A stretch of 64,000 bases of DNA. Origin: Bacilli bacterium (lineage in GTDB: Bacteria > Bacillota_I > Bacilli_A > RFN20 > CAG-826). Where the stretch lies: NCBI GenBank assembly GCA_017447165.1, contig JAFSOD010000004.1:564478-628477 (forward strand), written 5' to 3'. A program made the position numbers and the translations under genes. Under the pieces are notes generated by a model. The model saw only the letters and a list, made by a program, of their open reading frames with translations, had not been told where the DNA came from and made no database searches. Every line of letters starts with the position of its first letter. Positions within the stretch are counted from its first letter, which is position 1. Of the stretch, positions 9,926 to 37,046 are shown piece after piece.

Positions 9926-9943
9926 ATAAGATTGGAGAAAGAT

Positions 9944-10729: not shown

Positions 10730-10732
10730 TGT

Positions 10733-11785
10733 ATGGATTTATCATTTTATAAAGGAAAGACGGTTTTAGTTACCGGACATACGGGTTTTAAAGGGTCTTG
10801 GTTATGTAAGATTCTTTTGATGCATGGTGCAAAAGTTGTTGGTTATGCATTAGAACCAGAAACAAAACCTAATCTCTTTTCTCAACTTAGTTTAGAAAAA
10901 GAAATGGTGTCTATAATTGGTGATATTAGAGATTTAGAAAAATTAAACAAAGCGTTTGATAGATATCAACCTGAAATAGTGCTTCATTTAGCGGCCCAAC
11001 CGATAGTGAGAACATCTTATCAAAAGCCAGTATATACCTATGACGTTAATGTGATGGGCACTGTAAATGTTTGTGAATGTGTCAGAACTCATAGATGTGT
11101 TAAATCATTTTTGAATGTCACAACAGATAAAGTCTATGAAAATGATGATATCCCAGATCATCCGTTTAAAGAAGATGAGAAATTAGATGGATATGATCCT
11201 TATAGCAACTCAAAGAGTTGTAGCGAAATAGTCACCCATTCATATTATAAGAGTTTCTTAAAAGAATTAGGTGTCGCTGTTAGTACCGCTAGAGCGGGTA
11301 ATGTTATTGGTGGAGGAGATTTTTCTAAAGACAGAATTATTCCTGATTCCGCTAGAGCATTAGCAAGTTCAACCGAATTAGTTATTAGAAATCCAAATTC
11401 CACTAGACCATATCAACATGTTTTAGAACCTCTTTTATGTTATTTAATAATTGCCAAAGAACAATATTTTAATCACGATTTGTGTGGTGCTTATAATATT
11501 GGGCCTGATAGTTGTGACTTCTCTACAACTGAGAAGTTAGTTAAGCTATTTGCTAAAAATTGTGGACCTGAATTTAAATACGTTATCAAAAGTGACAACG
11601 GCCCACACGAAGCTGCGTTTTTATCTTTAGATAATAGTAAGATGAAAAAGACATTCAACTGGTCTCCAAGAATTCATATTGAAGACGCTGTTAGATTGTC
11701 TGCTGAATGGTATAATGCTTGGGTCAATAATCAAGATTTAATTAAGTTAACAGAAAAACAAATTAAGGAGTTTTTAAGTGAATAG
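10733..11785 (+). CDS. rfbG: CDP-glucose 4,6-dehydratase
   Basis: FYKGKTVLVTGHTGFKGSWLCKILLMHGAKVVGYAL...YSNSK is the RfbG/DdhB signature. It follows rfbF immediately. Confidence 0.8.
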   Translation: MDLSFYKGKTVLVTGHTGFKGSWLCKILLMHGAKVVGYALEPETKPNLFSQLSLEKEMVSIIGDIRDLEKLNKAFDRYQPEIVLHLAAQPIVRTSYQKPVYTYDVNVMGTVNVCECVRTHRCVKSFLNVTTDKVYENDDIPDHPFKEDEKLDGYDPYSNSKSCSEIVTHSYYKSFLKELGVAVSTARAGNVIGGGDFSKDRIIPDSARALASSTELVIRNPNSTRPYQHVLEPLLCYLIIAKEQYFNHDLCGAYNIGPDSCDFSTTEKLVKLFAKNCGPEFKYVIKSDNGPHEAAFLSLDNSKMKKTFNWSPRIHIEDAVRLSAEWYNAWVNNQDLIKLTEKQIKEFLSE

Positions 11786-21134: not shown

Positions 21135-22667
21135 ATGAAAAGAAAAGCACTCAAACATTTTATTTGGCTTGGCCTTTTAGCAATTAGTTTAACCGGTTGT
21201 GGAGCCGAACCGGTAGTGGGCCCACAAGGGGAGCCTGGTAAAGATGGCGTTTCTATTGTTTCGGTTACTTTAACTAGTTCAAGCGAAAATATTGACACAT
21301 ATACAATCACTTATTCTGATGATCACACATCAACTTTTAATGTTACCAATGGTGTTGATGGTGAATCTATCCAGGGTGAACCGGGTAAAGACGGACATAC
21401 TCCAAACATTACTATCAGCGAAGATGGATATTGGATCATTGATGATGTAAAAACATCAATCCTTGCCAAAGGCATCCAAGGTGAAGCGGGTGTTTCTGTT
21501 GTATCAATCGAATTATTATCCTCGGTTGGTTTATTGGATACATATCAAATTAATTATAGCGATGGAACTCATTCAACATTTACAGTTACTAACGGTAAAG
21601 ATGGTGAATCTATTCAAGATAAACCTGGTAAAGACGGACATACTCCAGAGATTATTATTGGTGAAAATGGTCATTGGTTTGTTGATGGAGTGGATACCGA
21701 AATAAAAGCACAAGGCCCACAAGGCCCAATTGGTCCACAAGGTGAACCTGGCAAAGATGGGTCTTCAATTATAACTGCAAATGGTGTTCCAGAAGATAAT
21801 CTAGGTAAAAACGGTGATTCTTATATCGATTTAGATAACTGGAATTACTATATTAAGGAAAATGGTGCCTGGAATTTAAAAGGTAATATCAAAGGCCAAG
21901 ATGGTAGCAATGGATCTAACGGCAAATCTGCGTATGAAATATATTGCGAAGCCCATCCTGAATATGAAGGTGATGAAACTAAATGGCTTGATGATTTAGT
22001 TAATGGCAATCTTGGAGATAAACAAATTCATACAGTGACATTTAATTCTAATGATGGAACACCTGTTGAAACTCAATTTGTGTTACACGGAGAAAAAGCG
22101 GTTAAACCAGTTTCTCCGACTAAAGAATATTATGTTTTCTCTGATTGGGTTGATGAAAATAATGATCACTGGGTATTTAATGGATTTAGTATTACCTCTG
22201 ATATCACCTTAAATGCAGTCTGGAAACAAGAATATGATTATAGTAAAATCGTGATTAACGAAGTTTGCTCTAAAAGTAGAAAAAGTTTCTTAGATAAATA
22301 TGGAGAAGAAAGTGACTGGATTGAACTCTATAATAGTGGATCTGGTGATATCAATTTAAAAGGGTGTGGCTTATCTAAATCAGTAGACGATCCATATGCT
22401 TTAGAATTTGATAACTGCATTTTAGAAGGAGACAGCTATTTAGTTGTTGTGGCTTCTGGTAGAAAAAATAAATTATATGAAAATGAGTACCATGCCCCAT
22501 TTACTCTTTCTAATAAAAAAGAAGGAAACTTATATTTCACTTCTCCTTTTGGTGTTAGTGATTCAATTAGTTATCCAGCTTTAAAAGATGATATTTCTTT
22601 TGGTGTTCTAGGTGATGAATTAACTATGCTTCAACCTTCAGCAGGAAGAAACAATGAAGAAGTGTAA
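21135..22667 (+). CDS. surface lipoprotein with collagen-like G-X-Y segments in two ~80 aa tandem modules, a Listeria/Bacteroides-type repeat and a lamin-tail-like domain
   Basis: Lipobox LLAISLTGCGA. GPQGEPGKDG, GEPGKDGHTP, DKPGKDGHTP and GPQGPIGPQGEPGKDG triplet runs. Tandem repeat at 21229..21480 and 21480..21780. HTVTFNSNDGTPV...YVFSDW (flg_new/List_Bact-like). VINEVCSK...DWIELYNSGSGDINLKGCGL (LTD-like). A GGGGAAG RBS precedes the ATG at 21135. Confidence 0.6.
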   Translation: MKRKALKHFIWLGLLAISLTGCGAEPVVGPQGEPGKDGVSIVSVTLTSSSENIDTYTITYSDDHTSTFNVTNGVDGESIQGEPGKDGHTPNITISEDGYWIIDDVKTSILAKGIQGEAGVSVVSIELLSSVGLLDTYQINYSDGTHSTFTVTNGKDGESIQDKPGKDGHTPEIIIGENGHWFVDGVDTEIKAQGPQGPIGPQGEPGKDGSSIITANGVPEDNLGKNGDSYIDLDNWNYYIKENGAWNLKGNIKGQDGSNGSNGKSAYEIYCEAHPEYEGDETKWLDDLVNGNLGDKQIHTVTFNSNDGTPVETQFVLHGEKAVKPVSPTKEYYVFSDWVDENNDHWVFNGFSITSDITLNAVWKQEYDYSKIVINEVCSKSRKSFLDKYGEESDWIELYNSGSGDINLKGCGLSKSVDDPYALEFDNCILEGDSYLVVVASGRKNKLYENEYHAPFTLSNKKEGNLYFTSPFGVSDSISYPALKDDISFGVLGDELTMLQPSAGRNNEEV

Positions 22668-23307
22668 GTATGATATTGAAGATCCAATTGTTTGGAAGGC
22701 TGGCGAAATTGAAGAAGGATATCAAACAGATATCTCTTATTTCCAAGAGGCTAGAGCCACAATTAACTCCGGTATCTTATCCGAGGCAGGATATGAAAGA
22801 TTCTGCAACAAATATTCTGTTTCTAGTTTTGTAGACACAATCATCTATCATTCTTATATTGATCATTATGACTATAGTATGTTCTCGTCTAATAGTTCGA
22901 TGTGGAGAAGTAGAGATGTTGATGAATCTTTAGAAAAGTCGGATGGATTAATAAGATTTATGCTTTATGATACTGATTTTTCATTAGGAACCCACTTTGA
23001 TTATACGCACTATCCAAAGTTAATTAGTGATTTCAAAGCAAGTTCAACACTCAAATATTTATTTGAAAATGCACAATTCCTCGAACTACTTAAAACAAGA
23101 GTGGCAGAATTAATACCACAATTTTCTAGCCAAGAATGTCGCGATATGGTGACCAATTATTTCAATAAGATTGAACCATTAATTCAACAAAATAATATTA
23201 GACATTATGGCTCAGTTGGTACTTCATACGTAAAAATGTGGAACACGTTAATCGAGTATTTAGAGAATCGTGGATCTTATTATTTAACATTCATTGAGGA
23301 ATTATAA
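22654..23307 (+). CDS. hypothetical protein; may be the frameshifted or translationally coupled continuation of the upstream lipoprotein
   Basis: The start overlaps the upstream stop by 14 nt. No domain recognised. Confidence 0.35.
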   Translation: MKKCKYDIEDPIVWKAGEIEEGYQTDISYFQEARATINSGILSEAGYERFCNKYSVSSFVDTIIYHSYIDHYDYSMFSSNSSMWRSRDVDESLEKSDGLIRFMLYDTDFSLGTHFDYTHYPKLISDFKASSTLKYLFENAQFLELLKTRVAELIPQFSSQECRDMVTNYFNKIEPLIQQNNIRHYGSVGTSYVKMWNTLIEYLENRGSYYLTFIEEL

Positions 23308-23704
23308 AAATAGATTAATGTTTGTAAAAATGCCTTCAGATTAGGTGTATTGTGCTTTCATGATAGAATAAAAACTATCAGAAAGCAAAAATGGGATGTG
23401 ATTCCTCTTTTCTCTTGAAAACCATAGGTGGCTCATGCTTATTCTTTATATTGGCGAAGGTTTTATGTTTGTTGGACAAATACTCGCCTTAGACAAGCTA
23501 AGGTTTAAAATATGTTGGATGGTTTAAAATAACCATGAAAGGCATTGTGTTTTAGAGTGAAGTTATGTTAAAAAATACTATCTTAAAATAAAACACAGAA
23601 TTATATATTAATAAATTAATATATATGCATATTGATAAAAAATGGAATATTTTGATATTTTTGCTTGATTTAACAATTATATTTGTTATACTACAAGAGA
23701 TTTT

Positions 23705-24310
23705 ATGAGAAAGAGTCAAAAGTTTTATTTAGTAATTAAGACAATAATAGGGATATTTGGGGCTTTTATAGGTATGTTAGTGTGCCTACCTTTAATTTAT
23801 TGGTGGATATTTATTGTCAATTTTATTGTCACTAAAGGACATCCATTCTATGTTCAAAAAAGATTAGGAAAACATAAAAAGGTGTTTGGATTAATCAAAT
23901 TTAGAAGCATGAGAGTTGATGCGCCTGAAGTTGCTCCTAGCGATATTAGTGAAGATACTCAAAAGAGTATGGAAACAGGATTTGGCAAGTTCTTAAGAAG
24001 AACATCATTAGATGAGACACCTCAACTATTTAATATATTAATATGCCAAATGGCATTCATTGGTCCTAGACCAGGTGCTGCGCATAATGAAGAAGAACTA
24101 GTTAGACTTAGGGAAGCATATACTCCTAATGCGTTTGATGTTAAACCAGGTTTAGGAGGATGGGCTCAACTAAAGAATAATAGAGCCCATGATCCTGAGG
24201 CTAAAGCTTTATTAGATCATGAATATGTTAAGAATATATCTTTATGGTTAGATATGAAGATATTTGTCTTAACAGTCTTACATTTATTCGGTAGTGGAAA
24301 GGGGAAATAG
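23705..24310 (+). CDS. undecaprenyl-phosphate sugar phosphotransferase, small monotopic PglC/WcaJ-C-terminal type (Bac_transf); initiating transferase
   Basis: One N-terminal TM, then KRLGKHKKVFGLIKFRSMRVDAPE...DETPQLFNILICQMAFIGPRPG...PGLGGWAQLKNNR, the Bac_transf catalytic core. Confidence 0.85.
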   Translation: MRKSQKFYLVIKTIIGIFGAFIGMLVCLPLIYWWIFIVNFIVTKGHPFYVQKRLGKHKKVFGLIKFRSMRVDAPEVAPSDISEDTQKSMETGFGKFLRRTSLDETPQLFNILICQMAFIGPRPGAAHNEEELVRLREAYTPNAFDVKPGLGGWAQLKNNRAHDPEAKALLDHEYVKNISLWLDMKIFVLTVLHLFGSGKGK

Positions 24311-24424
24311 TTCCTCTTTTCTTTTTTTATGCTCTTTAACTTATGTTGCTATAAAAACGATTGGTGGCTCGTATTTGTCCTTAAGTGTTGATAAGTGTTG
24401 CTTTGTTTGCTAGACAAACACTCG

Positions 24425-24680
24425 TCGCATAGGGGAGATAGGCTTTATTGGACCTAGACCATTAATTGATAAAGTTGATGACCACATTACCATTGAGATG
24501 AGAAAACAAAATAGTTCTTTAAACTAGTTCCTGGCATTAGTGGATATGCGCAGATAAATGGGCGTATTGATATACCTCCTGAGGAGAAGGCCATATTAGA
24601 TGGGTTCTACTATGAACATATTTCTTTATGGTTTGATACTAGAATATTCATTATCACTTTTTACAAACATTATATTTAAG
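24425..24680 (+). pseudogene. degenerate, frameshifted 3' remnant of a second, divergent sugar-phosphotransferase gene
   Basis: Frame 1 gives GFIGPRPLIDKVDDHITIEMRKQNSSLN*. Frame 3 continues PGISGYAQINGRIDIPPEEKAILDGFYYEHISLWFDTRIFIITFYKHYI*, a Bac_transf C-terminus. There is no start and a frameshift. A terminator-like hairpin follows at ~24700. Confidence 0.55.
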
Positions 24681-24818
24681 AAAAAACAAACCTAAAAGTG
24701 AACAAGAAGGGAAATAGAAATCCTTCTTTTTTCACCTATGGTTTGTTTTTGATATCATAATATAATTAAATAGACTATTTTTAAAATGCGACATCCAATA
24801 TGATTAAGGAGATTGTTT

Positions 24819-25445
24819 ATGTATAGTTATCTTTTAAACAAAGAATTAAGGAATGAATTAAGAATGTATTGCGAGGAGAAGATTTTTTTATTGCAAAAAG
24901 AAGTAAGCGAATATTTTACATTTTCATTCAAATTAATTGGGAGTGGTGATAATCGCTTAATGACTATTAACGGAAACAACAAATCGATAGATTTGGATTA
25001 TAACATTGTTATTCAACGCGATAAAAAACAGCTCATTGGGGAACCAGAGCAGATTAAAAAAATATTTATGAGAGCATTCAAAGATGTTTGTGGTCGTGAC
25101 ACCAAAGTGTCTGACTCTACACAAGTGATTACTTGTAAGGTTGGAAAAATTGATGGGTATGATTTCTCGTTTGACATCGCTATATTCGTGGAAGGGAATG
25201 ATGGATTTATTTATAAACTTATTAACGACAAAAAAACAATACCATCGAGATATGTATGGAATAGAATCCCGAGTTCTAAAGATTTCAATTTCAAGTTTTC
25301 ATATTTAAAAAGAAATGGGCATTGGGAAGATATCAAATCCTTATATTTAAAAAAGAAAAATTTGTATTTAACTAGAGGCTCAGATAAAACGTCTTTTTCA
25401 ATTTTAATTGAAACCGTGAATGAAATTATGCAAAAGATGGAATAG
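24819..25445 (+). CDS. Pol-beta-superfamily nucleotidyltransferase (minimal NTase/SMODS-like)
   Basis: hG[GS]-x9-13-DxD motif LIGSGDNRLMTINGNNKSIDLDYNIVI and a third acidic residue in YDFSFDIAIF. An AAGGAG RBS lies 7 nt before the ATG at 24819; the track start at 24813 is a TTG. Confidence 0.5.
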   Translation: MYSYLLNKELRNELRMYCEEKIFLLQKEVSEYFTFSFKLIGSGDNRLMTINGNNKSIDLDYNIVIQRDKKQLIGEPEQIKKIFMRAFKDVCGRDTKVSDSTQVITCKVGKIDGYDFSFDIAIFVEGNDGFIYKLINDKKTIPSRYVWNRIPSSKDFNFKFSYLKRNGHWEDIKSLYLKKKNLYLTRGSDKTSFSILIETVNEIMQKME

Positions 25446-25448
25446 CTT

Positions 25449-26126
25449 ATGATTGATTATGACAAATTCTTTTCAATTATAGATATTGATGAGAGCGAGA
25501 AAGAATCCGCTAAAGAATACATTGCTTTAAGAGGGTTGCAGGAACACATCGATATGGCAACATATTTATCGTCATTTCTTGCAGCAAGGAAACCAACATA
25601 TAAGGAAGTTGCAACAGCATTTAGATACGATAAGAGAATAAGAAGAATTCTATATAAATATATAGGCTTATTAGAAGAGATGTATCGTGCATACATTTGT
25701 AACAATTTTAATAACATCAAGCAATTAGGATTAAAGACCAGCAAGCCATTATTTCAATATATTTCATTGTCTCTATTTAGTTCTCTCGTTAATATAGTGT
25801 GGTCACTAGATGAAAACCATAAAAAAGAATTATTTGAAGGCAAGGCAGTTCTTAAAAAGAATTTAGATGCTCTTGTTACTTTACGAAACGCAATAGGACA
25901 CAATAGGACAATTATCAATTACCGAGATTATAAAGAAGCAACATTAAGCACTGGAGAGGTCGGAAATTCTTTGTTAATTAATATAAAAAATATGTTGGAC
26001 TTTTTGCCGTCGGAAATTAGAAACAAATGCATTAAAGAAACTAATGAAGCAAATAGAAGCGGGACAAAGAAAATAAAAAACCAAGTAGATTGGGCGCTTA
26101 TTTCAATGCTTGTTATTAAGTTATAA
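25449..26126 (+). CDS. Abi_2 (AbiD/AbiF-like)/HEPN-family protein
   Basis: Rx4H HEPN motif in VTLRNAIGHNRTI. Upstream FRYDKRIRRILYKYIGLLEEMYRAYI resembles the Abi_2 family. Starts 4 nt after the NTase gene. Confidence 0.5.
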   Translation: MIDYDKFFSIIDIDESEKESAKEYIALRGLQEHIDMATYLSSFLAARKPTYKEVATAFRYDKRIRRILYKYIGLLEEMYRAYICNNFNNIKQLGLKTSKPLFQYISLSLFSSLVNIVWSLDENHKKELFEGKAVLKKNLDALVTLRNAIGHNRTIINYRDYKEATLSTGEVGNSLLINIKNMLDFLPSEIRNKCIKETNEANRSGTKKIKNQVDWALISMLVIKL

Positions 26127-26202
26127 CGTATAAACAAATTGTTTAAAATGAAAATAGAATTGTTTATAAACTTTTTTGTGGTTTATAATTAAACCAATCA
26201 AT

Positions 26203-27234
26203 ATGCAAAGAAAAAAATATCAAGTATTTACGCCAGAGGCAGTAGTTGAAAAAATGCTGGATCTTTTAGGGTATAAAGGCGAATTAATTATTAATAAAAG
26301 AATTATTGATATTTCCTGTGGAGATGGTGCTTTTTTGGTTTCGGCCGCTGAAAGATTAATTGCTGAATGCAAAAACAAGAATTTGACAACAAAAGAAATC
26401 ATGGAAAAGTGTTCGCAAAACATTTGCGGTATTGAAATTGAAACTGAATATTATAAAAAATGTATTAAACGCCTTAATGAAGTTATTAAAAAGCACTTTA
26501 AAAAGTTATACATTAAATGGAAAAACGTAAATAACGGCGATGGACTTTTACACTCAGAGGATAATTATGATTTTGTTGTTGGCAATCCGCCTTATATTTC
26601 ATATAAAGATATGTCAAGCGAACAAAAAGAGTATCTTAGGAACAACTTTTTAAGTTGCAAGCAATACAGATTTGATTATTCGTTTGCTTTTATCGAAAAA
26701 AGCCTTAACATTTTGTCTGATCAAGGCAAAGGATGCATTATTTCCCCTATTAATATGTATAGGATTAAATCTGGAATTGGAATAAAAGAATTAATCCGTC
26801 CTTATCTTGATGTTATAGTTGATGTTACAGAAGATAACATTTTTCCAAGAGTATTAACGAACCCTGTCATTTCTGTTTTCAGCAAAACAAAAAAAACCAA
26901 TGAAATTGTTTTGTTAAAGCGCGATTTAGCTCCAAGGAAATTGCCAAGGGAAACGTTCGAAAACGACATCAACTTGTTTATAAACGTCGGATCGCGTCGT
27001 TTTGGAGATTATTTTTCGGTTCACAATGGTGTGGCGACTTTGTATAACGAAGCATTTATTGTTAATAGCGATAGTGATCTTGAATCAGAAGTATTAATGA
27101 ATGCTAGAAGTCCGAAGTTTAGCAGATTCAATTTGAATAAGAAAATTATTTTCCCTTATTTGCACTCCAGTGGCACAATAAACAAAATTGATGAAAAAGA
27201 TTTTTTTGAAAAATATCCAAACTGTCCAAATTGA
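26203..27234 (+). CDS. N6-adenine-specific DNA methyltransferase (gamma-class, Eco57I/TaqI-like)
   Basis: Motif I IIDISCGDGAFLVSAAE and motif IV VVGNPPYISYK in gamma order. A TATAAT box sits 13 nt upstream of the ATG at 26203; the track start at 26176 is a TTG. Confidence 0.75.
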   Translation: MQRKKYQVFTPEAVVEKMLDLLGYKGELIINKRIIDISCGDGAFLVSAAERLIAECKNKNLTTKEIMEKCSQNICGIEIETEYYKKCIKRLNEVIKKHFKKLYIKWKNVNNGDGLLHSEDNYDFVVGNPPYISYKDMSSEQKEYLRNNFLSCKQYRFDYSFAFIEKSLNILSDQGKGCIISPINMYRIKSGIGIKELIRPYLDVIVDVTEDNIFPRVLTNPVISVFSKTKKTNEIVLLKRDLAPRKLPRETFENDINLFINVGSRRFGDYFSVHNGVATLYNEAFIVNSDSDLESEVLMNARSPKFSRFNLNKKIIFPYLHSSGTINKIDEKDFFEKYPNCPN

Positions 27235-27604
27235 TCATATTGATTCATCTGAGCCAAAAGACAACACGTTAAAAAATTTGGCACCGGCATGTTTTGATTG
27301 TAATCAAAAGAAAAAAGACATTTGTGACAAACATTCACTTGCTTCTATTATAAATCCATATAATTCTATACATAATGTATTTCAAAGGAATGATGATTAT
27401 AGCATTTGCATAAAAGATGGTTACATAGATAATGAAGATGTTAGGGTGTTTTTTGAAAAACTTAAGCTTGGATCTCAAATTAAAAGAATTGATTATCTTC
27501 TATCGTGTATTCGCTCAATCAAAGATAAACAAGAAAATAGATTTATTAAATCTTGTTTGTCTGATATATATAATTCACTTCTAGACAAAAGAATAATGAT
27601 GTAA
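27191..27604 (+). CDS. HNH-family endonuclease domain protein. Its 5' end overlaps the MTase 3' end in another frame, so it may be a frameshifted C-terminal domain of the MTase
   Basis: QIDHIDSSEPKDNTLKNLAPACFDCNQKKKD is an HNH core (His-...-Asn-...-CxxCN). No RBS was found. A 44-nt frame overlap contains a T7 run (27201..27207). Confidence 0.45.
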   Translation: MKKIFLKNIQTVQIDHIDSSEPKDNTLKNLAPACFDCNQKKKDICDKHSLASIINPYNSIHNVFQRNDDYSICIKDGYIDNEDVRVFFEKLKLGSQIKRIDYLLSCIRSIKDKQENRFIKSCLSDIYNSLLDKRIMM

Positions 27605-27649
27605 GTCCAAACTGTAAATCATACTCTCATACGTTTTAGTTAAACAAAT

Positions 27650-27917
27650 GGCTTTTATTGGTCCTAGACCAGGAACTGCTAAAATCTGAGTGAGTCAATT
27701 AGACTTAGAGAAGCATATACTCCTAATGCATTTGATGTTAAACTTGGATTAAGTGGATGGGCACAACTCAAGAATAAGAGAGCACACAACCCAGAAAATA
27801 AAGCTAAATTAGATCTTGAATATGTAAAGAATTTATCTTTATGGCTAGATATTAAAATATTTGTGTTAACAGTATTTCGTTTATTTGGTAGTGGAAAGGG
27901 GAAGTAATTCCTCTTTT
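27650..27917 (+). repeat. direct duplicate (~85-90% identical, frameshifted) of the last ~250 nt plus terminator of the sugar-transferase gene at 24058..24326
   Basis: atggcttttattggtcctagaccagg...gcatatactcctaatgcatttgatgttaaac...ttatctttatggctagatat...ggtagtggaaaggggaagtaattcctctttttt parallels ATGGCATTCATTGGTCCTAGACCAGG...GCATATACTCCTAATGCGTTTGATGTTAAAC...GGTAGTGGAAAGGGGAAATAGTTCCTCTTTTC. The copy has stops and frameshifts. Confidence 0.7.
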
Positions 27918-27997
27918 TTAGTGATCTAGAATTTCTATTTAATAAGGGTCAATATGTTACGCTTAATTATTATAGATAGTCATGATATCATTCTCTT

Positions 27998-28936
27998 ATG
28001 ATACCAAACGAATTTAAATATTTTTGTCAAAACGAAATGCATCTACCTTACGCAGACGATTCTTGCGTTACATCAGTTAAGAGCAGTATTTTTAGTTGCC
28101 TTATTCATGATAGCTGTTATTTCAGCAACGACATTAAAAAATCAAATATCATAGCGAATTGTATTTTTATTTTTTTATTGGATCGACCATTCTACAACAG
28201 ATCTGATTATTGGTATTTTTATTATGAAGAAAATAATACACCAGGTAACGGACGCCGCATTAATACATATCAGTTATTTCTTAAATATCCAATAAATGTT
28301 ATAGGCAAAACAGATTTATGCTTAAAACTTATTGGCTTGCACCTTGGAAATATTTCGAAAGACATTTCAAACACTTTTATAGAAAGACATTACCGTATTT
28401 TTTTACCAGAAGATAAACTCACTGGTTATTACACAATGTTAGATTTCTTGGTTCAACGCGGATTAATTTTTAATTATAAGCTTACTGTTGAAGGGTGGAA
28501 AAGATTTGATGAAATAACAAACAAGAACACTTCATCAAATCAATTGTTTATAGCAAGCCAATTTGAAGGATTCGATGAAATAATTGGTGTGGTTAAAGAC
28601 TCTGTTATAGAGTGTGGCTATTCACCAGTTTACATGAAAGATCACCAAACGAATAACTATATAATGCCTGAGATTTTTTCTTTAATAGATAATAGCAAAG
28701 CTGTTATCGGAGAAATATCATCAAATAATAATGGTGTATATTTTGAAATTGGTTATGCAAAAGGCAAAGGAATAGATGTTATTTTGATATGCAAAGCTCA
28801 GCGAGATGATAGCGGAAAATTAATAACTAAAACACATTTTGATGTTTCTCAAATTTCTATTATTTACTATGACGATAAAGAAGATTTAAAGAAAAAACTA
28901 ACGTTTAGAATCGAAAATACAATAAGCAAGAGTTAA
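27998..28936 (+). CDS. hypothetical protein with a C-terminal nucleoside 2-deoxyribosyltransferase-like (SLOG/Rossmann) domain
   Basis: The C-terminus QLFIASQFEGFDEIIGVV...NYIMPEIFSLIDNSKAVIGEISSNNNGVYFEIGYAKGKGIDVILIC resembles the NDT-family core with its catalytic Glu (E[LI]GYA). N-terminal 180 aa unrecognised. Confidence 0.4.
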   Translation: MIPNEFKYFCQNEMHLPYADDSCVTSVKSSIFSCLIHDSCYFSNDIKKSNIIANCIFIFLLDRPFYNRSDYWYFYYEENNTPGNGRRINTYQLFLKYPINVIGKTDLCLKLIGLHLGNISKDISNTFIERHYRIFLPEDKLTGYYTMLDFLVQRGLIFNYKLTVEGWKRFDEITNKNTSSNQLFIASQFEGFDEIIGVVKDSVIECGYSPVYMKDHQTNNYIMPEIFSLIDNSKAVIGEISSNNNGVYFEIGYAKGKGIDVILICKAQRDDSGKLITKTHFDVSQISIIYYDDKEDLKKKLTFRIENTISKS

Positions 28937-29046
28937 ATAGCGTATCAACTAATGTTTGCTTTTTAGCATAAATTTCATACATCTTTAAATATAATGTTTT
29001 ATAGAATTAGGTGCCATTTTGTCACAATAGTTATATAATAGTGAAC

Positions 29047-30450
29047 ATGACACTAAAAGAATTAAGAAAATTAAAGAATCTAACACAGTTAGAAGCATCT
29101 GAGATTACAGGTGTACCACTCCGCTCATATAAGCGTTTAGAAAGTGATGAGAAGTATGTTTCATCACTTAAATATAAACAAGCATATTCTATATTAAAGG
29201 GCCATAGTGGCACTTTTATTGATGATATTAAATTATCATCTAAAACTATTTCTGTTGCGGGTACTGGCTATGTCGGTTTATCTAATGCGATTATCTTATC
29301 GCAACATAATAAAGTATACGCAGTAGATGTAGTTCCTTCTAAAGTTGAACTAATTAACTCTAAGAAATCTCCTATAGTAGATAAAGAGATAGATGAGTAT
29401 TTAGCTACTAAGGAATTAGATTTAGTGGCAACATTAGATGGTGATAAGGCTTATAAAGAATCTGAAATAGTGATTATTGCTACTCCTACTAACTATGATA
29501 GTGTGACTAATAAGTTTGATACCTCTAGCGTAGAATCTGTTATTGAACAAGTTAAAAGAGTGAATCCTAATGCTTGGATCATTGTTAAATCAACAGTGGG
29601 TGTTGGCTTTACTAGATATGTTAGAGAGAAATATAACTATGACAAGATATTATTCTCTCCAGAGTTCTTAAGAGAAGGCAAAGCCTTATATGATAACTTA
29701 TATCCATCTCGTATCGTGGTGGGTGTACCAGAAAAAGTAGAACCTTATTTATCTAAAGCAAAAGAGTTTGCTGCTTTATTAAAACAAGGTGCACTTAAAC
29801 CTAATGTTGATGTGCATATCTTAGGATATACAGAAGCAGAGGCTGTTAAGTTATTCGCTAATACTTATTTAGCGCTTAGAGTCGCATATTTTAATGAATT
29901 AGATACTTTTGCCCAAACCAAAGGTTTAGATACCTTAGATATTATTAAAGGAGTATGTGGAGATCCTAGAATTGGTGATTTCTATAATAATCCATCCTTT
30001 GGGTATGGAGGATATTGCTTACCTAAAGACACTAAAGAGTTAAGAGCGAACTTTGAAGATGTACCAGAAAATCTTATTTCTGCGATCGTGGAATCTAATA
30101 GAACTAGAAAACAATTTATTTGTGATGATGTATTAAGAAAAGCGGGATATAAGAATGATGGTAAAGACGATATTACTGTTGGTATATATAGACTTACCAT
30201 GAAAAGTGGTAGTGATAACTTTAGACAATCCTCTATTCAAGGGGTGATGAAACGCTTACACGCGAAAGGTGTGAGAATAGTTATTTATGAACCAACACTT
30301 AAAGATGAAGAATTCTTTAACTGTAAGGTTATAAAAGACTTTGATAGCTTTAAGTCTATGAGTAAGGTGATTATCGCTAATAGATATGATTCATCTTTAG
30401 ATGATGTTAAAGATAAAGTCTACACAAGAGACTTATTAAGGAGAGATTAA
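29047..30450 (+). CDS. ugd: UDP-glucose 6-dehydrogenase with an in-frame N-terminal XRE-type helix-turn-helix extension
   Basis: [19 protein letters not shown] (NAD-binding) and the catalytic [14 protein letters not shown] motif. The N-terminal 60 aa [31 protein letters not shown] are HTH_XRE-like. The ATG at 29047 is preferred over the track GTG at 29011. A TATAAT box lies 8 nt upstream, suggesting a leaderless mRNA. Confidence 0.75.
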
Positions 30451-30451
30451 C

Positions 30452-31477
30452 ATGAGCAGCAAAAAGGCCTTCGTTATTTTATCTTTTGTTGGGTTTGTTT
30501 CTTTGTGTGGACTTGTTATAGCTGACATTTGCTTACATTTTTTAAATAACATAGATTCGTTGATTATTCGACTTTTAGAGTTGATTTTTGGTTGTTTAAC
30601 ATCCGCATCAATTTCTTTAACGGTATCATTTTCTAATAATATAAAACAAACAGTAAAGTCTAATTCTGGCACAATAACAAATATTACATATAACCATTCG
30701 CCAATATCCGATCTTGGTCTTATGCTTCCAACATGCACTCCGGTCCAATTAAAGAACGAATTAATTAAGGTTGGAAATGACCTTGAAATATTGAAAAAAG
30801 AGAACGTAGAAAATATTGTCAATTTAGTGTATGAAAGAATTAAAGAAAGCGACTCGATTCATCCAATTGACTTGAACTTTGTGTTAAAATACATTGACTG
30901 TGCATCTACTATTTCAGATAAAGATATTCAAAAAATATGGGCTGAATTACTTGTTTCGAAAGTGATCGATGGAGTGACAACATCAAAAAGGCTACTTGAT
31001 ACTATAAAAAATCTATCTTCCTATGAAGCGAAATTGTTTGAAAAGGTTGCCATACTTTGTACACCCGAAGGTGTATTATTTGAAAATTTTAAAGAAGATT
31101 TTTCTTTTGAAGAATTATCTACTTTGACCGAAGCTGGACTCATTAAACCACACGATTTATTGACTGATACATTTCATCTTGCACCCAGAACCAACAAAAC
31201 TGTTCTCGTTAAAAGTGACTCTATTGTTATTTTAGGCTCAAATGATTCTGAAAAAGAAAAAGAACTATCATATTCTTGCTCGATGTTAACCACGGAAGGT
31301 ATTATATTAAAGAAAATATTAAAGCTAAAAATTGATGATAGTAGTATGATAAAACTTGCTTTAGAAATGAAAAAAGTTGCTTCAAGAGAGGGTGTAAAAA
31401 TATCTGCCCACAGCATAAATTTCACAACCCAAAATGGTTTGAATTATAAACTTGAAGATTTGATTGGTAATAAATAA
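30452..31477 (+). CDS. hypothetical protein with N-terminal hydrophobic segments, inserted between ugd and the epimerase
   Basis: N-terminus AFVILSFVGFVSLCGLVIADICLHF...FGCLTSASISLTV followed by a ~250 aa soluble region with no recognised motif. Confidence 0.4.
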   Translation: MSSKKAFVILSFVGFVSLCGLVIADICLHFLNNIDSLIIRLLELIFGCLTSASISLTVSFSNNIKQTVKSNSGTITNITYNHSPISDLGLMLPTCTPVQLKNELIKVGNDLEILKKENVENIVNLVYERIKESDSIHPIDLNFVLKYIDCASTISDKDIQKIWAELLVSKVIDGVTTSKRLLDTIKNLSSYEAKLFEKVAILCTPEGVLFENFKEDFSFEELSTLTEAGLIKPHDLLTDTFHLAPRTNKTVLVKSDSIVILGSNDSEKEKELSYSCSMLTTEGIILKKILKLKIDDSSMIKLALEMKKVASREGVKISAHSINFTTQNGLNYKLEDLIGNK

Positions 31478-32499
31478 TGTATATTTTAGTCACAGGTGCA
31501 GCGGGTTTTATTGGTTCATTCCTAGCCAAGAAATTATTAGAAAGAACTGATCATGAGATTGTTGGGGTTGATAACCTTAATGACTATTATGATGTGTCTT
31601 TAAAAGAAGAAAGATTAAAGATGTTGTCTCCTTTTAAGAACTTTAAGTTCGTTAAAGGCGATATATCAGATAAAGCATTTATCGATAAATTATTTGAGGA
31701 ATATCGTTTTGATATTGTTGTTAATTTAGCGGCGCAAGCAGGGGTGAGATACTCTATCGATCATCCTGATGTTTATATTAATTCCAATATTATTGGATTT
31801 TATAACATATTAGAAGCTTGTAGATATCATATGCCTAAACATTTAGTGTACGCTTCTAGTTCTTCTGTATATGGAGGAAACACTAAAGTTCCATTTAGTA
31901 CAGAAGATAAGGTAGATAATCCAGTTAGTTTATATGCGGCTACTAAGAAATCTAATGAATTATTAGCCCATGCTTATTCTAAGTTATATAACATACCTAC
32001 TACTGGATTAAGATTCTTTACAGTATACGGCCCAATGGGTAGACCTGATATGGCGTATTTCTCATTTACTAATAAACTTATTAAAGGAGAGACTATTGAG
32101 ATCTTTAATTATGGTAACTGTAAAAGAGATTTTACTTATGTAGATGATATTGTGGAAGGCATTATCAAGGTTATGGGTAAAGCACCTTCTAAAAAAGATG
32201 GAGAAGATGGATTACCTATTCCTCCATATAAAATCTATAACATTGGTAATAATAACCCTGAGAACTTATTAGACTTTGTTGAGATATTGTCTGAAGAGTT
32301 AGTAAGAGCAGGAGTATTACCTAAAGATTATGATTTTGAATCTCATAAGAAATTGGTGGCGATGCAAAAAGGTGATGTCCCTATTACTTACGCAGATACA
32401 TCTGATTTAGAAAGAGATTTTGGATATAAACCTTCTACATCTTTAAGAGACGGATTAAGAAGATTCGCTGAGTGGTATTATTCCTATTATATTAAATAG
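31477..32499 (+). CDS. UDP-glucuronate 4-epimerase (NAD-dependent epimerase, Cap1J/WbnF-like)
   Basis: MYILVTGAAGFIGSFLAKKLL...VDNLNDYYDVSLKEERL...YASSSSVYG...YAATKK is the typical GlcA/GalA epimerase subfamily sequence. Confidence 0.8.
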   Translation: MYILVTGAAGFIGSFLAKKLLERTDHEIVGVDNLNDYYDVSLKEERLKMLSPFKNFKFVKGDISDKAFIDKLFEEYRFDIVVNLAAQAGVRYSIDHPDVYINSNIIGFYNILEACRYHMPKHLVYASSSSVYGGNTKVPFSTEDKVDNPVSLYAATKKSNELLAHAYSKLYNIPTTGLRFFTVYGPMGRPDMAYFSFTNKLIKGETIEIFNYGNCKRDFTYVDDIVEGIIKVMGKAPSKKDGEDGLPIPPYKIYNIGNNNPENLLDFVEILSEELVRAGVLPKDYDFESHKKLVAMQKGDVPITYADTSDLERDFGYKPSTSLRDGLRRFAEWYYSYYIK

Positions 32500-32521
32500 C
32501 AATTACTTAAGTTAATTATTT

Positions 32522-32550
32522 GCCCATATTATTTATATGGGCTTTTTTAT
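32522..32550 (+). terminator. rho-independent terminator after the epimerase gene
   Basis: gcccatat-tattta-tatgggc followed by tttttt. Confidence 0.6.
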
Positions 32551-32678
32551 AAATATCAAAAGACTAGTTCTTAATTTAATATTGGTATCTATTTTAAAAT
32601 AACTAATCTATTGACATAAAAGTGATCTATAATTAAAATATATTTGTTCAAAAAACTTGAACTAACGGAGGTGTTACT

Positions 32679-33836
32679 ATGGTTATCTTGGATTTAAAAT
32701 TAAACAATGTTTTAGGTTTTAAAGACATTCATTTCAATTTTACATATCCGAAGAAATTAAGAAAGAATTCTTTGGGAGAAGAGTGCTTAAAAGGAGTCCC
32801 TAATTTCAGATATAAAAAAGTTAATGTCGTTATGGGTAGCAATTCTAATGGAAAATCATCTTTGGGCAAAACTATCTGGGGGCTCTGTTTATTTTTTCGT
32901 AAAAAAGAAAGTAACAATCTTATTAAGTTGATGTCTGATGGTTCTGATTCAATGAATATATCAATTGATTATGTTTGTGCATCAGAAACTCAAAAATATA
33001 TTTTAAACAGAGTGGCTATCAGAGTGAAAAAAGATGAAAATTTAACTACTGGATACAGTATTAAAATGGATTATGATTGTGTTACCCTTAGAGGTGACGA
33101 CACTTACGAAACAGCCTGTAAAAATTTAGTTAGAAAAATTTATAATTTGGATTATTTAGACTGCTTAAATGCAATTTCCCATTCCGACGGATGGTTTATT
33201 GCAATGCCAATTACTGAGACAGGTTTTGATAAATTTGAATTGGAACTTGAAAAGCCAAACAGAGAACTGTTTTCAAATATATTATTTAAAGTTTTGAATA
33301 CACTTGACCCCAATATTCAGTCTTCTACAGTTAGTAACGAAATTGATGATGCATATATTATCAAATTTGATGATGGAAAAAATACCATTGTCAAATCTGG
33401 TGATCGAATAACTGATATTAGATATTTGTCCAGCGGAACAAAATATGGTTTTATAATTGCAACTGTCATTTATTCAATTGGAAAGCAACATAATGGTTTG
33501 TTTTATATTGATGAGCTTTTTTCTTATGTTGATTCTGATATAGAAATCGCAATATTAAATTTAATGATTTCGCTACTTGGGGATTGCGAGCAACTATTTT
33601 TTTCAACACACAACTCTGAAGTTTTATTACTCCCATATCCTTTACATTCGTTTATGTTTTTAGGGAAAGAAAAAGTCGATGATCAAATTAAGATTAAGAC
33701 CATTTGTGCGTCAGATGTTGAAAAGAGAAATAATGTCGTTGTAAAGAATTTATACGATAATGACTATTTCGATATTTCGCCAGATTCTTCCAGAATTTTT
33801 GAGATTGAGGAGTTATTTGATAATGGGGAACAATAA
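32679..33836 (+). CDS. ABC/OLD-family (AAA_15/21-like) ATPase; first gene of a three-gene operon
   Basis: RecF-like N-terminus ILDLKLNNVLGFKDIHFNF...VNVVMGSNSNGKSSLGKTIW (Walker A). C-terminal LFYIDELFSYVD (Walker B/D-loop) and FFSTHNSEVL (H-loop). A GGAGGTG RBS lies 7 nt upstream. Confidence 0.6.
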   Translation: MVILDLKLNNVLGFKDIHFNFTYPKKLRKNSLGEECLKGVPNFRYKKVNVVMGSNSNGKSSLGKTIWGLCLFFRKKESNNLIKLMSDGSDSMNISIDYVCASETQKYILNRVAIRVKKDENLTTGYSIKMDYDCVTLRGDDTYETACKNLVRKIYNLDYLDCLNAISHSDGWFIAMPITETGFDKFELELEKPNRELFSNILFKVLNTLDPNIQSSTVSNEIDDAYIIKFDDGKNTIVKSGDRITDIRYLSSGTKYGFIIATVIYSIGKQHNGLFYIDELFSYVDSDIEIAILNLMISLLGDCEQLFFSTHNSEVLLLPYPLHSFMFLGKEKVDDQIKIKTICASDVEKRNNVVVKNLYDNDYFDISPDSSRIFEIEELFDNGEQ

Positions 33837-34341
33837 TTTAATTCAGTATTTTGTAGAAGGTGAATGTGAGGAAAAATTTATTAATGTTTTCAAAACCGGC
33901 AGCGATGCTTTTTTAAAGGCTGGTAAAGTTGAAGTTTTGAATCCTGTCAATAAGATTATAACCGAGGCTAGAGCGAGAACTATTAAGCAAAATACAACTG
34001 TTGTTCTTGTATATGACATAGACAAAGGAAATATAGATGTTTTGCTTAGCAACATCAAAACACTTAAAAACCACTCTTTAACAAAAATTATTCACATTCA
34101 GTCAGTAATGAATTTTGAAGATGAAATAGTAAGATCAACTAGTATTAACTCTATTGATGAAATGTTTTCCACGAAAGGAGTGGAAAATTTTAAGGAAAAA
34201 TTTATTGGTCATAAGAATATTAAGTCTAAATTGGAAAAAGTAAAATTTGATAATTCTATTTTTTGGTCTAAAGTCTATAGAAATGGCCAATTTAAGGATT
34301 TCGCAATTAAGGGTTCGATAAAAAACATAAGAAAAGAATAA
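33823..34341 (+). CDS. small Toprim-like domain protein (AriB/OLD-C-terminal-like) that overlaps the ATPase gene
   Basis: Conserved Glu in LIQYFVEGECEEKF and a DxD in VVLVYDIDKGNIDVL, spaced as in Toprim. The ATG at 33823 overlaps the ATPase stop by 14 nt. Confidence 0.45.
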   Translation: MGNNNLIQYFVEGECEEKFINVFKTGSDAFLKAGKVEVLNPVNKIITEARARTIKQNTTVVLVYDIDKGNIDVLLSNIKTLKNHSLTKIIHIQSVMNFEDEIVRSTSINSIDEMFSTKGVENFKEKFIGHKNIKSKLEKVKFDNSIFWSKVYRNGQFKDFAIKGSIKNIRKE

Positions 34342-34368
34342 TCAAAGCGCGGAAAGGAGCAAAACAAA

Positions 34369-34977
34369 ATGGAAAGACATAAAGTGTTTATAAGTTATTA
34401 TCATAAAGACCAGTCATATAAGGATTTGATTTGTGATGTTTGGAATTCTAATCAAGAGTTATTTGACGATTATTCTGTAGGGTTTGGAGACATTGATGAC
34501 ACAAACAAATCTGATGAAACAATTCGCAAAATTATTAGAGATGAATATATTGCTGATGCCACTGTCCTTCTTTTGCTATGCGGCCCTGAAACAAAAACCA
34601 GGAAATATATCGATTGGGAATTACATGCCGCCATGTACAATACAGAAAATAATCCAAAAATGGGCATTGTGGTTATTAATTTACCCAATTCTAGGAATGG
34701 TGTTAGAGCGCCAACGGATCGAGAAAAAGAAATAGTTGCTCCAAACAGTAACTGGACTTCGTTTGACACAAGAAAAGAATTCGAAGAAAGATATCCTTCA
34801 GCGCCATCTAGAATTATTGATTCTTTATACAAATGTCATTCAGATATTACTTTTGTGGATTGGAGCACCATAAATAATAATCATTTGTTACTAAAAGAAT
34901 TAATTGACTATGCTTTTAAAAGAAAAGATGAGATTGAATATGATACATCAGCTACATTGAGGAGAAAAAATAGTTAA
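34369..34977 (+). CDS. TIR-like domain protein (ThsB/DUF1863-like)
   Basis: HKVFISYYHKDQSYKDLICDVWNS...ATVLLLLCGPETKTRKYIDWELHAA follows the ThsB-type TIR-like pattern (F[FI]S[FY]H..D; vLIG.eT..s.wV.wEi..A). An AAGGAG RBS is present. Confidence 0.6.
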   Translation: MERHKVFISYYHKDQSYKDLICDVWNSNQELFDDYSVGFGDIDDTNKSDETIRKIIRDEYIADATVLLLLCGPETKTRKYIDWELHAAMYNTENNPKMGIVVINLPNSRNGVRAPTDREKEIVAPNSNWTSFDTRKEFEERYPSAPSRIIDSLYKCHSDITFVDWSTINNNHLLLKELIDYAFKRKDEIEYDTSATLRRKNS

Positions 34978-35234
34978 TCTATATATAATGACGTATTATC
35001 TATACAAACGTAATTTAAATATTTAGTAAAAAATTTAAAAAAAGAAAGCAAATATATAAGTTTATTGTTCCTACGCTTTTGAGGTTTGCTGTACAAAATT
35101 TATAAAACAAATACTTATAGTGCCAGTAGCACTTTTATTGTTAATAAAAAACCAATATAAATGATTACAAATTAACAAAACATAATTAGCATTTTATCTA
35201 ATTATGATATAATTTGTCGCAAGGGGTTAAAATT

Positions 35235-37046
35235 ATGCAAGCATTAATGTTAGCAGCTGGCTTAGGAAAAAGACTAGCCAAATATACAAAAGATAACACC
35301 AAATGTATGGTGGAAGTCGCTGGTCAAAAGTTAATTGATCGCGCGATTACCGCTATTAAAAAAGCAGGTATTAAAAGATTCGTCATTGTTACTGGATATA
35401 AAGGTGACAATTTAAAGAAATATATTTTAGATAATTATGAAGGCCAATTAGACTTTGTTTTTATTGATAACAAAGACTATGCGACCACCAATAATATCTT
35501 CTCTTTCTATTTAGCCAAAGAAGAATTAAAGAAAGATGACGTTATCTTACTAGAAAGCGATATCATCTTTGATGAAGACTTAATTAAAGATGTCTTAGAA
35601 AGCGAAGACAAAGATATTGTTACAGTCGCTAAATATGAATCTTGGATGGATGGAACATGCGTTACTTTAGATGAAAATAACTGCATTAAAAAGTTCATCG
35701 AAAAAGCTAGATTCCTATATGAATTCATCGATAAATATTATAAGACAGTGAACATCTATAAATTCTCTAAAGAATTTGTGAATAACATCTATATCCCATT
35801 CTTAGAGACTTATATGAAGATGTATGGTCTAAATTGTTATTATGAGACTCCACTTAAATATATTTGTAAATTACCAGAGATCTCCTTTAAAGCGTTCACT
35901 ATGGATGATCGACCATGGTATGAAATCGATGATGCGCAAGATTTAGATATCGCGACTGTCTTATTCTCCAATGGAGAAGATAAACTCAAATTAATTGAAA
36001 AGAAGTTTGGTGGCTATTGGAGATTCCCAGGACACTTAGATTTCTGTTATTTAGTGAATCCATATTTCCCACCTAAAGAAATGGTGGCGAAACTCCAATA
36101 TGAACTTCCAACCCTATTAACTCAATATCCTTCGGGATTATCCGTCCAAAATATGAACGCCGGTAGATTATATAATGTTGATGAGAATCATATCTTTGTG
36201 GGGAACGGCGCAGCTGAACTAATTAACGCGCTAGGACATGTCTCTAAAGGTAAGAAAGTCGCTGTCAATTTACCAGCATTTAACGAATATGTGAGATGTT
36301 TCAAAGAATCAGAGATTATTGAGATCGATAACTCTAAATTTGATTATCAGTTAAATTTATCAGCGATTAAATCGGCGATTGATAAAGCGGATATCACTGT
36401 CATCATTTCTCCAGATAACCCTTCTGGATACATGCTCAAAAAAGAAGAAATCGTAGAACTTGCGGAATACTCTAAAGCCAAAGGCCATAAATTAGTGGTG
36501 GATGAATCCTTCGTGGACTTCGCTAGAGACAAAATTAGATTTACTTTATTAGATGACGATTTTATCAATAAATATCCAAATGTCATCGTTGTGAAATCCA
36601 TCTCTAAATCTTATGGAGTGCCTGGCTTAAGACTTGGTTTACTCGCTACAAGTGACACTAAGCTATTAAAAGAGCTCAAACAAGAAATGCAGGTTTGGAA
36701 TATTAATTCCTTTGCGGAATATTATCTTCAAATCTATCAACTCTTTTCTAAGAGCTACGCTGAAGCGTGTGATAAGATCGTGGAAGCTAGAGAAGAATTT
36801 GTTAGCAAACTCAAAGAGTTTAAAGGATTTAAAGTCTATCCTAGTGAGGCCAACTTTGTAATGGTTGATACTGGAAAAGTTAGTTCTCATGAACTCGCTA
36901 TTGAGTTACTTAATAAATACAAACTCATCATTAAAGACTTATCTAGCAAGCATACTTTTGAAGGCAAAAACTTCATTAGACTCGCAGTGAGAAATAAAGA
37001 AGATAACGATTACTTAATTGACTGTTTAAAAGAAACGCTTAAGTAA
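35235..37046 (+). CDS. bifunctional protein: N-terminal sugar/alcohol-phosphate nucleotidyltransferase fused to a class I/II PLP-dependent aminotransferase/decarboxylase (HisC/CobD-like)
   Basis: N-terminus MQALMLAAGLGKRLAKYTKDNTKCMVEVAGQKLIDRAI is the NTP_transferase G-x-G-x-R motif. The C-terminus has DNPSGYMLKKEEIVELAEY...LVVDESFVDF...SISKSYGVPGLRLGLL, with the PLP lysine in SxSK. An AAGGGG RBS precedes the ATG at 35235. Confidence 0.65.
   Translation: MQALMLAAGLGKRLAKYTKDNTKCMVEVAGQKLIDRAITAIKKAGIKRFVIVTGYKGDNLKKYILDNYEGQLDFVFIDNKDYATTNNIFSFYLAKEELKKDDVILLESDIIFDEDLIKDVLESEDKDIVTVAKYESWMDGTCVTLDENNCIKKFIEKARFLYEFIDKYYKTVNIYKFSKEFVNNIYIPFLETYMKMYGLNCYYETPLKYICKLPEISFKAFTMDDRPWYEIDDAQDLDIATVLFSNGEDKLKLIEKKFGGYWRFPGHLDFCYLVNPYFPPKEMVAKLQYELPTLLTQYPSGLSVQNMNAGRLYNVDENHIFVGNGAAELINALGHVSKGKKVAVNLPAFNEYVRCFKESEIIEIDNSKFDYQLNLSAIKSAIDKADITVIISPDNPSGYMLKKEEIVELAEYSKAKGHKLVVDESFVDFARDKIRFTLLDDDFINKYPNVIVVKSISKSYGVPGLRLGLLATSDTKLLKELKQEMQVWNINSFAEYYLQIYQLFSKSYAEACDKIVEAREEFVSKLKEFKGFKVYPSEANFVMVDTGKVSSHELAIELLNKYKLIIKDLSSKHTFEGKNFIRLAVRNKEDNDYLIDCLKETLK

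Follow-up and report, generated by a model that had tools for sequence, protein, structure and literature searches.

A 312-aa protein encoded in a polysaccharide-synthesis locus of a Bacilli bacterium is a good candidate for a one-gene phage-defence system. The gene lies on the + strand at 27998-28936 of the 64,000-nucleotide stretch of contig JAFSOD010000004.1 that we analysed (the window), among genes for a flippase, LicD, GNAT, Bac_transf, ugd, an epimerase and Wzy. Its product is ordered as a zinc ribbon, degenerate in this protein, a winged helix-turn-helix (wHTH) and a C-terminal enzyme domain resembling nucleoside 2-deoxyribosyltransferases (NDT) and TIR domains. We give a probability of roughly 0.55 to the reading that this is a single-protein anti-phage sensor-effector whose NDT/TIR-like domain would hydrolyse NAD+ or nucleotides upon infection, carried as self-contained accessory cargo within the polysaccharide locus.

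The open reading frame starts with ATG and has its stop codon within these coordinates, exactly where a sequence-only reading had placed it, and the C-terminal peptide quoted in that reading is found in the translation. An orthologue with 96 % identity to the 312-aa protein (P0001) is present on two metagenome contigs. Comparison of the window with the locus L001 revealed 12 non-synonymous and 18 synonymous differences in the gene, with a dS of 0.11 against 0.57 for ugd. Since dN/dS against the 96 % orthologue is 0.15, the gene is under purifying selection, and 27998-28936 can be taken as a real gene. When its surroundings were scanned for promoters and terminators, nothing exceeded shuffled expectation.

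Residues 182-312 (28541-28933, + strand) form the predicted Rossmannoid catalytic domain. Pfam PF05014 (Nuc_deoxyrib_tr) matched the window protein over aa 214-270 only, at 21.6 bits (E = 2.5e-4) and thus under its gathering threshold of 28.8 bits, and matched 66 of 74 relatives at E ≤ 0.01 (best E 2.2e-7). DUF4062 (PF13271) was also below its threshold (20.0 versus 24.7 bits; E = 8e-4) and reached E ≤ 0.01 in nine of the 74. The PADLOC model PDLC00733, which PADLOC labels 'Effector-TIR', matched the window protein at 1.6e-5 and 73/74 members, the best at 2e-18; CAP12-PCTIR_TIR matched one member. The Pfam TIR, TIR_2 and ThsB_TIR models had no match to the window protein at E ≤ 0.1, and NCBIfam held nothing for the protein or its family. 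A single-sequence search of PDB sequences gave insignificant matches only, but a family-profile search did align NDT-type entries. In the profile alignment, 'GVYFEaGyA' of the family falls on 'GVGYELGRA' of Rcl/DNPH1 (E 1e-3) and on 'GTAFEVGCA' of an NDT.

The family signature reads F184-x-A186-x-x-F189, E225, E239-x-S241, G246-V-Y-F-E250-x-G252, H280-F-D282-x-x-Q285 and R304. Eight positions are invariant in all 74 relatives of alignment A2 (E250, F184, A186, G252, F281, D282, L301 and R304), H280, Q285 and F189 are kept in 72-73 of them, and position 239 is Asp or Glu in 73. Glu250, encoded by the GAA codon at 28745-28747 (+ strand), is the predicted catalytic residue by its sequence, its conservation and its alignment to the Rcl/DNPH1 and NDT motifs; the motif Glu is the catalytic nucleophile in Rcl/DNPH1 and NDT enzymes. 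As in the NDT superfamily, this Glu sits in a G-x-x-x-E-x-G motif and an acidic residue ends the preceding strand. Because the window protein retains every conserved residue, its active-site signature is intact and the domain is apparently catalytically competent, most readily placed in the NDT/TIR branch of the TIR-DrHyd-SLOG class. NDT-fold enzymes act on nucleosides, dNMPs, CMP or NAD+, so several substrates are possible for the window enzyme.

An AlphaFold2 (AF2) model, built from a 56-sequence alignment, has a mean pLDDT of 84.4. Its C-terminal three-layer α/β Rossmannoid fold superposes on solved NDT-type enzymes and also has the character of a TIR fold; Foldseek matched the model to SARM1 TIR, BcmB, NDT, DNPH1 and SPARTA TIR. 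SLOG/LOG-type domains (LOG/DprA/YpsA-like) are not its nearest neighbours in structure or sequence. The sequence-only reading had proposed an NDT/SLOG fold, to be checked against a predicted structure: the Rossmannoid NDT/TIR assignment held, while 'SLOG', a sister superfamily, was imprecise. No match to an unrelated housekeeping family appeared in Pfam or NCBIfam.

The N-terminal part is more variable. A Cys-pattern survey of the 74 relatives showed that most open with a CxxC...CxxC zinc ribbon, which one sub-branch replaces with 'CPIWGT...SPRAGG'. Examples with all four cysteines are B. mycoides WP_215576348.1, Leptospira WP_192505173.1 and the Klebsiella MAG copy in L036. Together with the AF2 model, the survey identifies aa 1-45 of the window protein (27998-28132, + strand) as a zinc-ribbon remnant: within the window clade (the window protein and P0001-P0005) the ribbon cysteines are reduced to C34, nearly invariant across the family, and C40. 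Strands at 14-18, 21-28 and 33-37 are predicted in the full-length model, and a model of the N-terminus alone was of low confidence. With its zinc-binding cysteines lost, the sensor of the window clade may work differently or be impaired. The wHTH follows at aa ~100-176 (28295-28525, + strand) and consists of three helices, a β-hairpin wing and a further helix.

As this wHTH resembles the MarR, HrcA, DtxR and PadR repressors, we considered a transcription factor or nucleotide sensor whose NDT/TIR-like domain is a non-catalytic ligand binder tuning nearby defence or polysaccharide genes. Some members of the TIR-DrHyd-SLOG class, named by Aravind and colleagues, are indeed inactive and ligand-sensing (PMC9503650), and the gene stands just upstream of ugd, which is itself HTH-extended. 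However, the nucleophile-type Glu and the full polar set are invariant even in very distant members, the 86 family loci reveal neither a regulon nor a conserved neighbour, and the polysaccharide locus does without the gene, which is absent from 80 related ugd loci. We regard a purely regulatory role as unlikely.

Fusion of a DNA-binding-type domain directly to an N-glycosidase fold also raises the idea that phage DNA or RNA is bound through the zinc ribbon and wHTH, and that bases, for example modified ones, would be cut from the polymer. The family is often embedded within R-M-like operons, and DNPH1 acts on hmdUMP, so the fold can take modified bases. Against this, polymeric DNA is not, to our knowledge, a substrate of any NDT- or TIR-fold enzyme. 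Furthermore, the retron NDT-like effector touches DNA as a regulator and not as a substrate (10.1101/2023.08.16.553469). Action on a nucleic-acid polymer therefore seems a little less likely than a regulatory role, and we hold a nucleic-acid-guided N-glycosidase class, or else a NADase filament nucleated by nucleic acid, to be similarly doubtful. If true, the guided or filament version would be restriction-like immunity without a described precedent for the fold.

The gene's position supports an accessory origin. On the metagenome contig L141, whose ugd shares 91 % identity with that of the window as well as its HTH extension, no gene stands between Bac_transf and ugd: L141 144-463 corresponds to window 24104-24424, and 470-1916 to 29005-30450. 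Because L141 shows this empty Bac_transf|ugd site, window ~24425-29004 is a 4.6 kb accessory insertion. In an alignment-based identity profile, a block at ~24.7-28.95 kb is 94-100 % identical between the window and L001, except for one 89 % bin in a pseudogene tail, compared with 77-91 % for the flanking polysaccharide genes (Bac_transf, ugd). No family member is present in any of the 80 related ugd loci examined. These findings bear out the earlier suggestion that the gene belongs to inserted material. Closer homologues also occur in polysaccharide loci, behind glycosyltransferases in L003 and behind an epimerase and an AbiTii gene in L007.

The insertion (24425-29004) comprises a scar, a broken defence cassette, a further scar and the target gene, as delimited by the L141 alignment, the block shared with L001 and a 3.3 kb deletion relative to L001. 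Direct-repeat families D1-D5 trace both scars to the Bac_transf tail: the live 3' end lies at 24047-24320, scar no. 2 at 24435-24648, and scar no. 3, a pseudogene copy on the + strand, at 27645-27917, directly upstream of the target gene, where it marks the left edge of the gene's own module. Since these three 3' ends each precede different cargo, the region downstream of the sugar transferase looks like a recurrent recombination hotspot in which cargo comes with a replacement gene tail.

The broken MTase/GHKL/HNH cassette spans 24813-27604. L001 and L002 are collinear with the window save for 3.3 kb lost from the latter, window ~27220 corresponding to L001 3566 to 6903; this deletion truncates the L001-type cassette of an MTase (467 aa), a GHKL ATPase (727 aa), a 195-aa protein and an HNH protein (201 aa). 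The junction at ~27220 (window 26176-27604; L001 2521-7288) fuses 352/467 aa of the Eco57I/N6-type MTase to 138/201 aa of the HNH protein, and both the 727-aa double-GHKL protein (HATPase_c_3 and HATPase_c) and the 195-aa protein are gone. L001's intact MTase-GHKL-195aa-HNH cassette resembles an unnamed methylation-linked defence system, and its MTase matches PADLOC mad2 (1e-17). The cassette is led, at 24813-26126, by a 210-aa ORF without a family match and a 225-aa protein that weakly matches Abi_2/AbiD and RiboL-PSP-HEPN; both share 94-100 % identity with L001 and perhaps constitute an Abi pair of the HEPN type in their own right.

Sharing an insertion and a high-identity block with L001 and L002, the target protein might be a component of the neighbouring MTase-GHKL ATPase-195 aa-HNH cassette. 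We consider this the least likely of the explanations weighed here: a transferase-tail scar and ~390 bp lie between the two, the homologues in L003, L004, L007 and 80 genome loci occur without cassette genes, and the target is still under purifying selection despite the cassette deletion in the window. Because the cassette and the target each sit behind a separate transferase-tail scar, we infer two modules stacked by successive recombination at one hotspot. The sequence-only reading was thus right to place the gene beside defence cargo in a shared insertion, but the gene forms a module separate from the cassette.

Several other genes of the window deserve description. The ugd gene (29011-30450) carries an unusual in-frame N-terminal fusion to an XRE-type HTH (Pfam HTH_3, aa 15-48). 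This extension was matched from query residue 1 in 6/80 related loci (L140-L143, L175 and L177); most remaining ugd loci align only from residue ~45-68, some of these contigs being truncated. A DUF2806/Abi_alpha-like gene (TIGR03899-like; 30452-31477) separates ugd from the epimerase. Because ugd and the epimerase are directly adjacent in at least eight related loci (L144, L150, L157, L163, L165, L170, L176 and L196), this gene is another inserted gene of defence type. Beyond the epimerase, the segment 32679-34977 encodes a 385-aa AbiLi-like AAA_21 ATPase (PADLOC AbiLi, 4e-17), a 193-aa ORF that overlaps it, has no matches and is possibly an AbiLii-type partner, and, at 34369-34977, a ThsB-like TIR protein (Pfam ThsB_TIR, 8e-18) with no recognisable ThsA effector nearby. 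At the other end, the polysaccharide region opens with a 758-aa protein (1836-4112) that contains a helicase-like domain of Schlafen group 3 (E 1e-8) and may be of defence type. Two ORFs of 697 and 720 aa on the - strand at 40597-44749 have no Pfam match at E ≤ 1e-4, and both GC skew and AT skew flip sign around them relative to the remaining window.

The ThsB-like gene, 5.4 kb downstream of the target, invites the interpretation that the target is the signal-activated effector of a Thoeris- or CBASS-like system acting in trans with it. Thoeris type VIII does employ an NDT-fold 'CMP hydrolase' effector, and the best sequence match of the window protein is the CBASS-type 'Effector-TIR' model of PADLOC. 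Yet five unrelated genes lie between the two genes, and a ThsB-like protein, a cyclase or any other recurrent partner is absent from the 86 family loci, the ThsB-like protein having been sought by single-sequence phmmer, a search of limited sensitivity. The target protein also lacks a TPR, SAVED, STING or SLOG sensor domain, and the slot is empty in L141-type strains. Such a partnership appears quite unlikely, though somewhat more likely than the metabolic and cassette-subunit explanations.

Contrary to the 'orphan' label that the protein had been given, its family is very large. Out of 5.8 billion proteins, a word-indexed homology search returned seven relatives. When these seven and the window protein were made into a profile, an exhaustive hmmsearch recovered 18,645 cluster representatives (50 % identity clustering) at E ≤ 1e-3, of which 8,376 reached E ≤ 1e-10 and 3,194 E ≤ 1e-30. 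Nearly all of the best 150 matches are 220-360 aa long and align from profile position ~45-95 through the C-terminus; most relatives have ~300-340 aa and the same architecture. Plasmids and viral contigs carry them too, and their hosts belong to many phyla. With one genome scanned per species, at least 558 loci came to light, patchily distributed over Clostridia, Bacilli, Ignavibacteria, Chloroflexi, Acidobacteria, Planctomycetes, Verrucomicrobia, Proteobacteria, Spirochaetes, Omnitrophota, CPR bacteria and one Nitrososphaerota archaeon. The nearest full-length genome relatives, at about 30-33 % identity, belong to Clostridia MAGs. Family relatives were detected on 50 IMG/VR contigs and 21 plasmids, and tblastn against cultured phage genomes detected none.

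Members that bear database names are called 'hypothetical protein' or 'nucleoside 2-deoxyribosyltransferase' (PGAP). The latter name, given to plasmid-borne relatives, and the fold and Glu motif shared with true NDTs would fit a housekeeping nucleoside 2-deoxyribosyltransferase of nucleoside salvage. The window protein nonetheless scores under the Pfam cut-off and has an additional zinc ribbon and wHTH. The gene is accessory and missing from sister strains, and the family is patchily distributed across plasmids, viral contigs and R-M-like operons. We therefore judge a salvage function very unlikely.

Clustering the four neighbours on either side by all-against-all BLAST across 86 family loci, a neighbourhood check that the sequence-only reading had proposed, yielded no recurrent partner gene. 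R-M, Abi and mobile-element genes are nevertheless often nearby. The neighbour set seen most often, at 6/86 loci, has three genes whose sizes recall a Type I R-M system, and independent scans of the genes immediately beside family members gave Type I methyltransferase and specificity-subunit matches for four members each. At L012 the homologue overlaps its neighbours' ends and lies between 448-aa and 1003-aa genes (hsdS/hsdR-sized), a 277-aa gene separating it from the latter; at L011 it is flanked by 669-aa and 1017-aa genes. The families of the immediate neighbours include N6_Mtase, Methylase_S, MmeI, N6_N4_Mtase, ResIII, AAA_21, AAA_13, SLFN_AlbA_2, DUF4062 and transposases. Ordinary neighbours, tRNA synthetases among them, occur at many loci.

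As a control, 138 immediate neighbours matched 330 PADLOC models (up to five members per model) and 103 genes located 6-9 positions away matched 118 (up to two members per model), a crude ~2-fold enrichment that, being without a genome-wide background, is suggestive only. A plasmid copy in B. mycoides neighbours integrase, recombinase, HNH and lysozyme genes, and on Leptospira interrogans plasmid p4 (L139 5009-9821) a 772-aa SAM-dependent methyltransferase gene and one for a SEFIR-domain protein enclose a member, all on one strand. The occurrence of the family in R-M operons, beside Abi genes and on plasmids and viral contigs fits the earlier assignment of the protein to conflict systems, in which its function would be that of an effector or sensor.

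Three further observations concern individual loci. Plasmid p4 also encodes phage baseplate proteins, and the L139 array may represent a defence island of several genes carried by a phage-plasmid. The Clostridiales MAG locus L009 holds a second match to the family profile (492 aa, E 2e-19, 2712-4190) ~5 kb upstream of its full-length homologue (9842-10828). A related small protein, by sequence a putative KilA-N-type DNA-binding protein, stands just upstream of the homologue in L009 (8951-9805), L010 (8974-9312) and L027.

PADLOC 2023 contains no named defence system covering this architecture, and our literature search returned no named system with it, only retron NDT effectors, Swarozyc, Thoeris type VIII and the TIR-DrHyd-SLOG classification. 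Compared with the NDT superfamily (PF05014; NDT, Rcl/DNPH1 and the MilB/BcmB CMP N-glycosidases; the 'DrHyd' of Aravind and colleagues), for which the window protein scores under the Pfam cut-off, the target adds an N-terminal zinc ribbon and wHTH and the family-specific HFD..Q and R304, and instead of being metabolic it is accessory and mobile and associates with defence genes. Unlike the TIR NADases (SARM1, plant TIRs, ThsB, SPARTA TIR and TIR-SAVED/TIR-STING CBASS), it has no Pfam TIR match, and a cyclase or signalling partner is absent from its loci.

Swarozyc is a single-protein anti-phage system with a DUF4062 TIR-like NADase that is activated by the phage portal (bioRxiv 10.64898/2026.05.01.722283). 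The target resembles it in combining, on one polypeptide, a TIR/NDT-like domain with a conserved Glu and an auxiliary domain, in its patchy, horizontal spread and occurrence in defence islands, and in weak sequence similarity (DUF4062, E 8e-4). In Swarozyc, however, the DUF4062 domain is N-terminal and the auxiliary part is a portal-binding helical stalk, whereas in the target the catalytic domain is C-terminal (aa 182-312) and is preceded by the ribbon and wHTH.

Retron type II effectors (Ec86/Eco1, Ec73, Sen2) contain the same two domain types in one defence effector, an NDT-like domain with a catalytic Glu and a winged-helix DNA-binding domain (PMC7736814, 10.1101/2023.08.16.553469); they are held by msDNA and are reported to deplete adenine derivatives once activated (10.1101/2023.08.16.553469). 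The domain order of the target is the opposite of the retron architecture (PMC7736814). Family loci have no RT-sized recurrent neighbour and no RVT among their top neighbour Pfam families. A search of window 22000-36000 against Rfam gave nothing relevant, only a sub-threshold Histone3 stem-loop that we take as chance. Retron membership was rejected, as neither an RT neighbour nor an msr/msd ncRNA was found.

The Thoeris type VIII effector ThsI fuses a CMP-hydrolase domain to TPR and has an adjacent cADPR-producing TIR gene (bioRxiv 10.64898/2025.12.03.692087). The target lacks both the TPR fusion and a conserved TIR partner, the window's ThsB-like gene being 5.4 kb away behind five genes, and we rejected this membership as well. 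The family is therefore a member of none of Swarozyc, retron type II or Thoeris type VIII, because domain order, partners or profile thresholds fail, although these three systems supply published precedents, differently arranged, for each element of the proposed mechanism.

Taken as a self-contained sensor-effector, the protein would divide its labour along its three domains. The zinc-ribbon remnant and winged helix would form the regulatory or sensing part, binding nucleic acid or a phage protein and/or mediating oligomerisation. Infection would turn on the NDT/TIR-like N-glycosidase, which would act through Glu250 to cleave the N-glycosidic bond of NAD+ or a (deoxy)nucleotide. Depletion of this essential metabolite would stop phage replication, a defence of the abortive-infection type.

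If this prediction holds, an architecture of ~310 aa would represent a widespread one-gene immune system missed by current defence catalogues, spanning thousands of 50 %-identity clusters across bacterial phyla, some archaea, plasmids and prophage-like contigs. To the arrangements of the NDT/TIR catalytic module found in the retron type II effectors and in Swarozyc it would add a third, small enough to serve as a convenient model for studying the sensing of infection by a winged helix and zinc ribbon. For the locus itself, the findings present polysaccharide-synthesis operons as stacking sites for defence cargo, each module behind a copy of a sugar-transferase 3' end. The family is thus a large, uncatalogued and experimentally tractable candidate for defence, whose logic would follow that of known NDT/TIR-based immunity.
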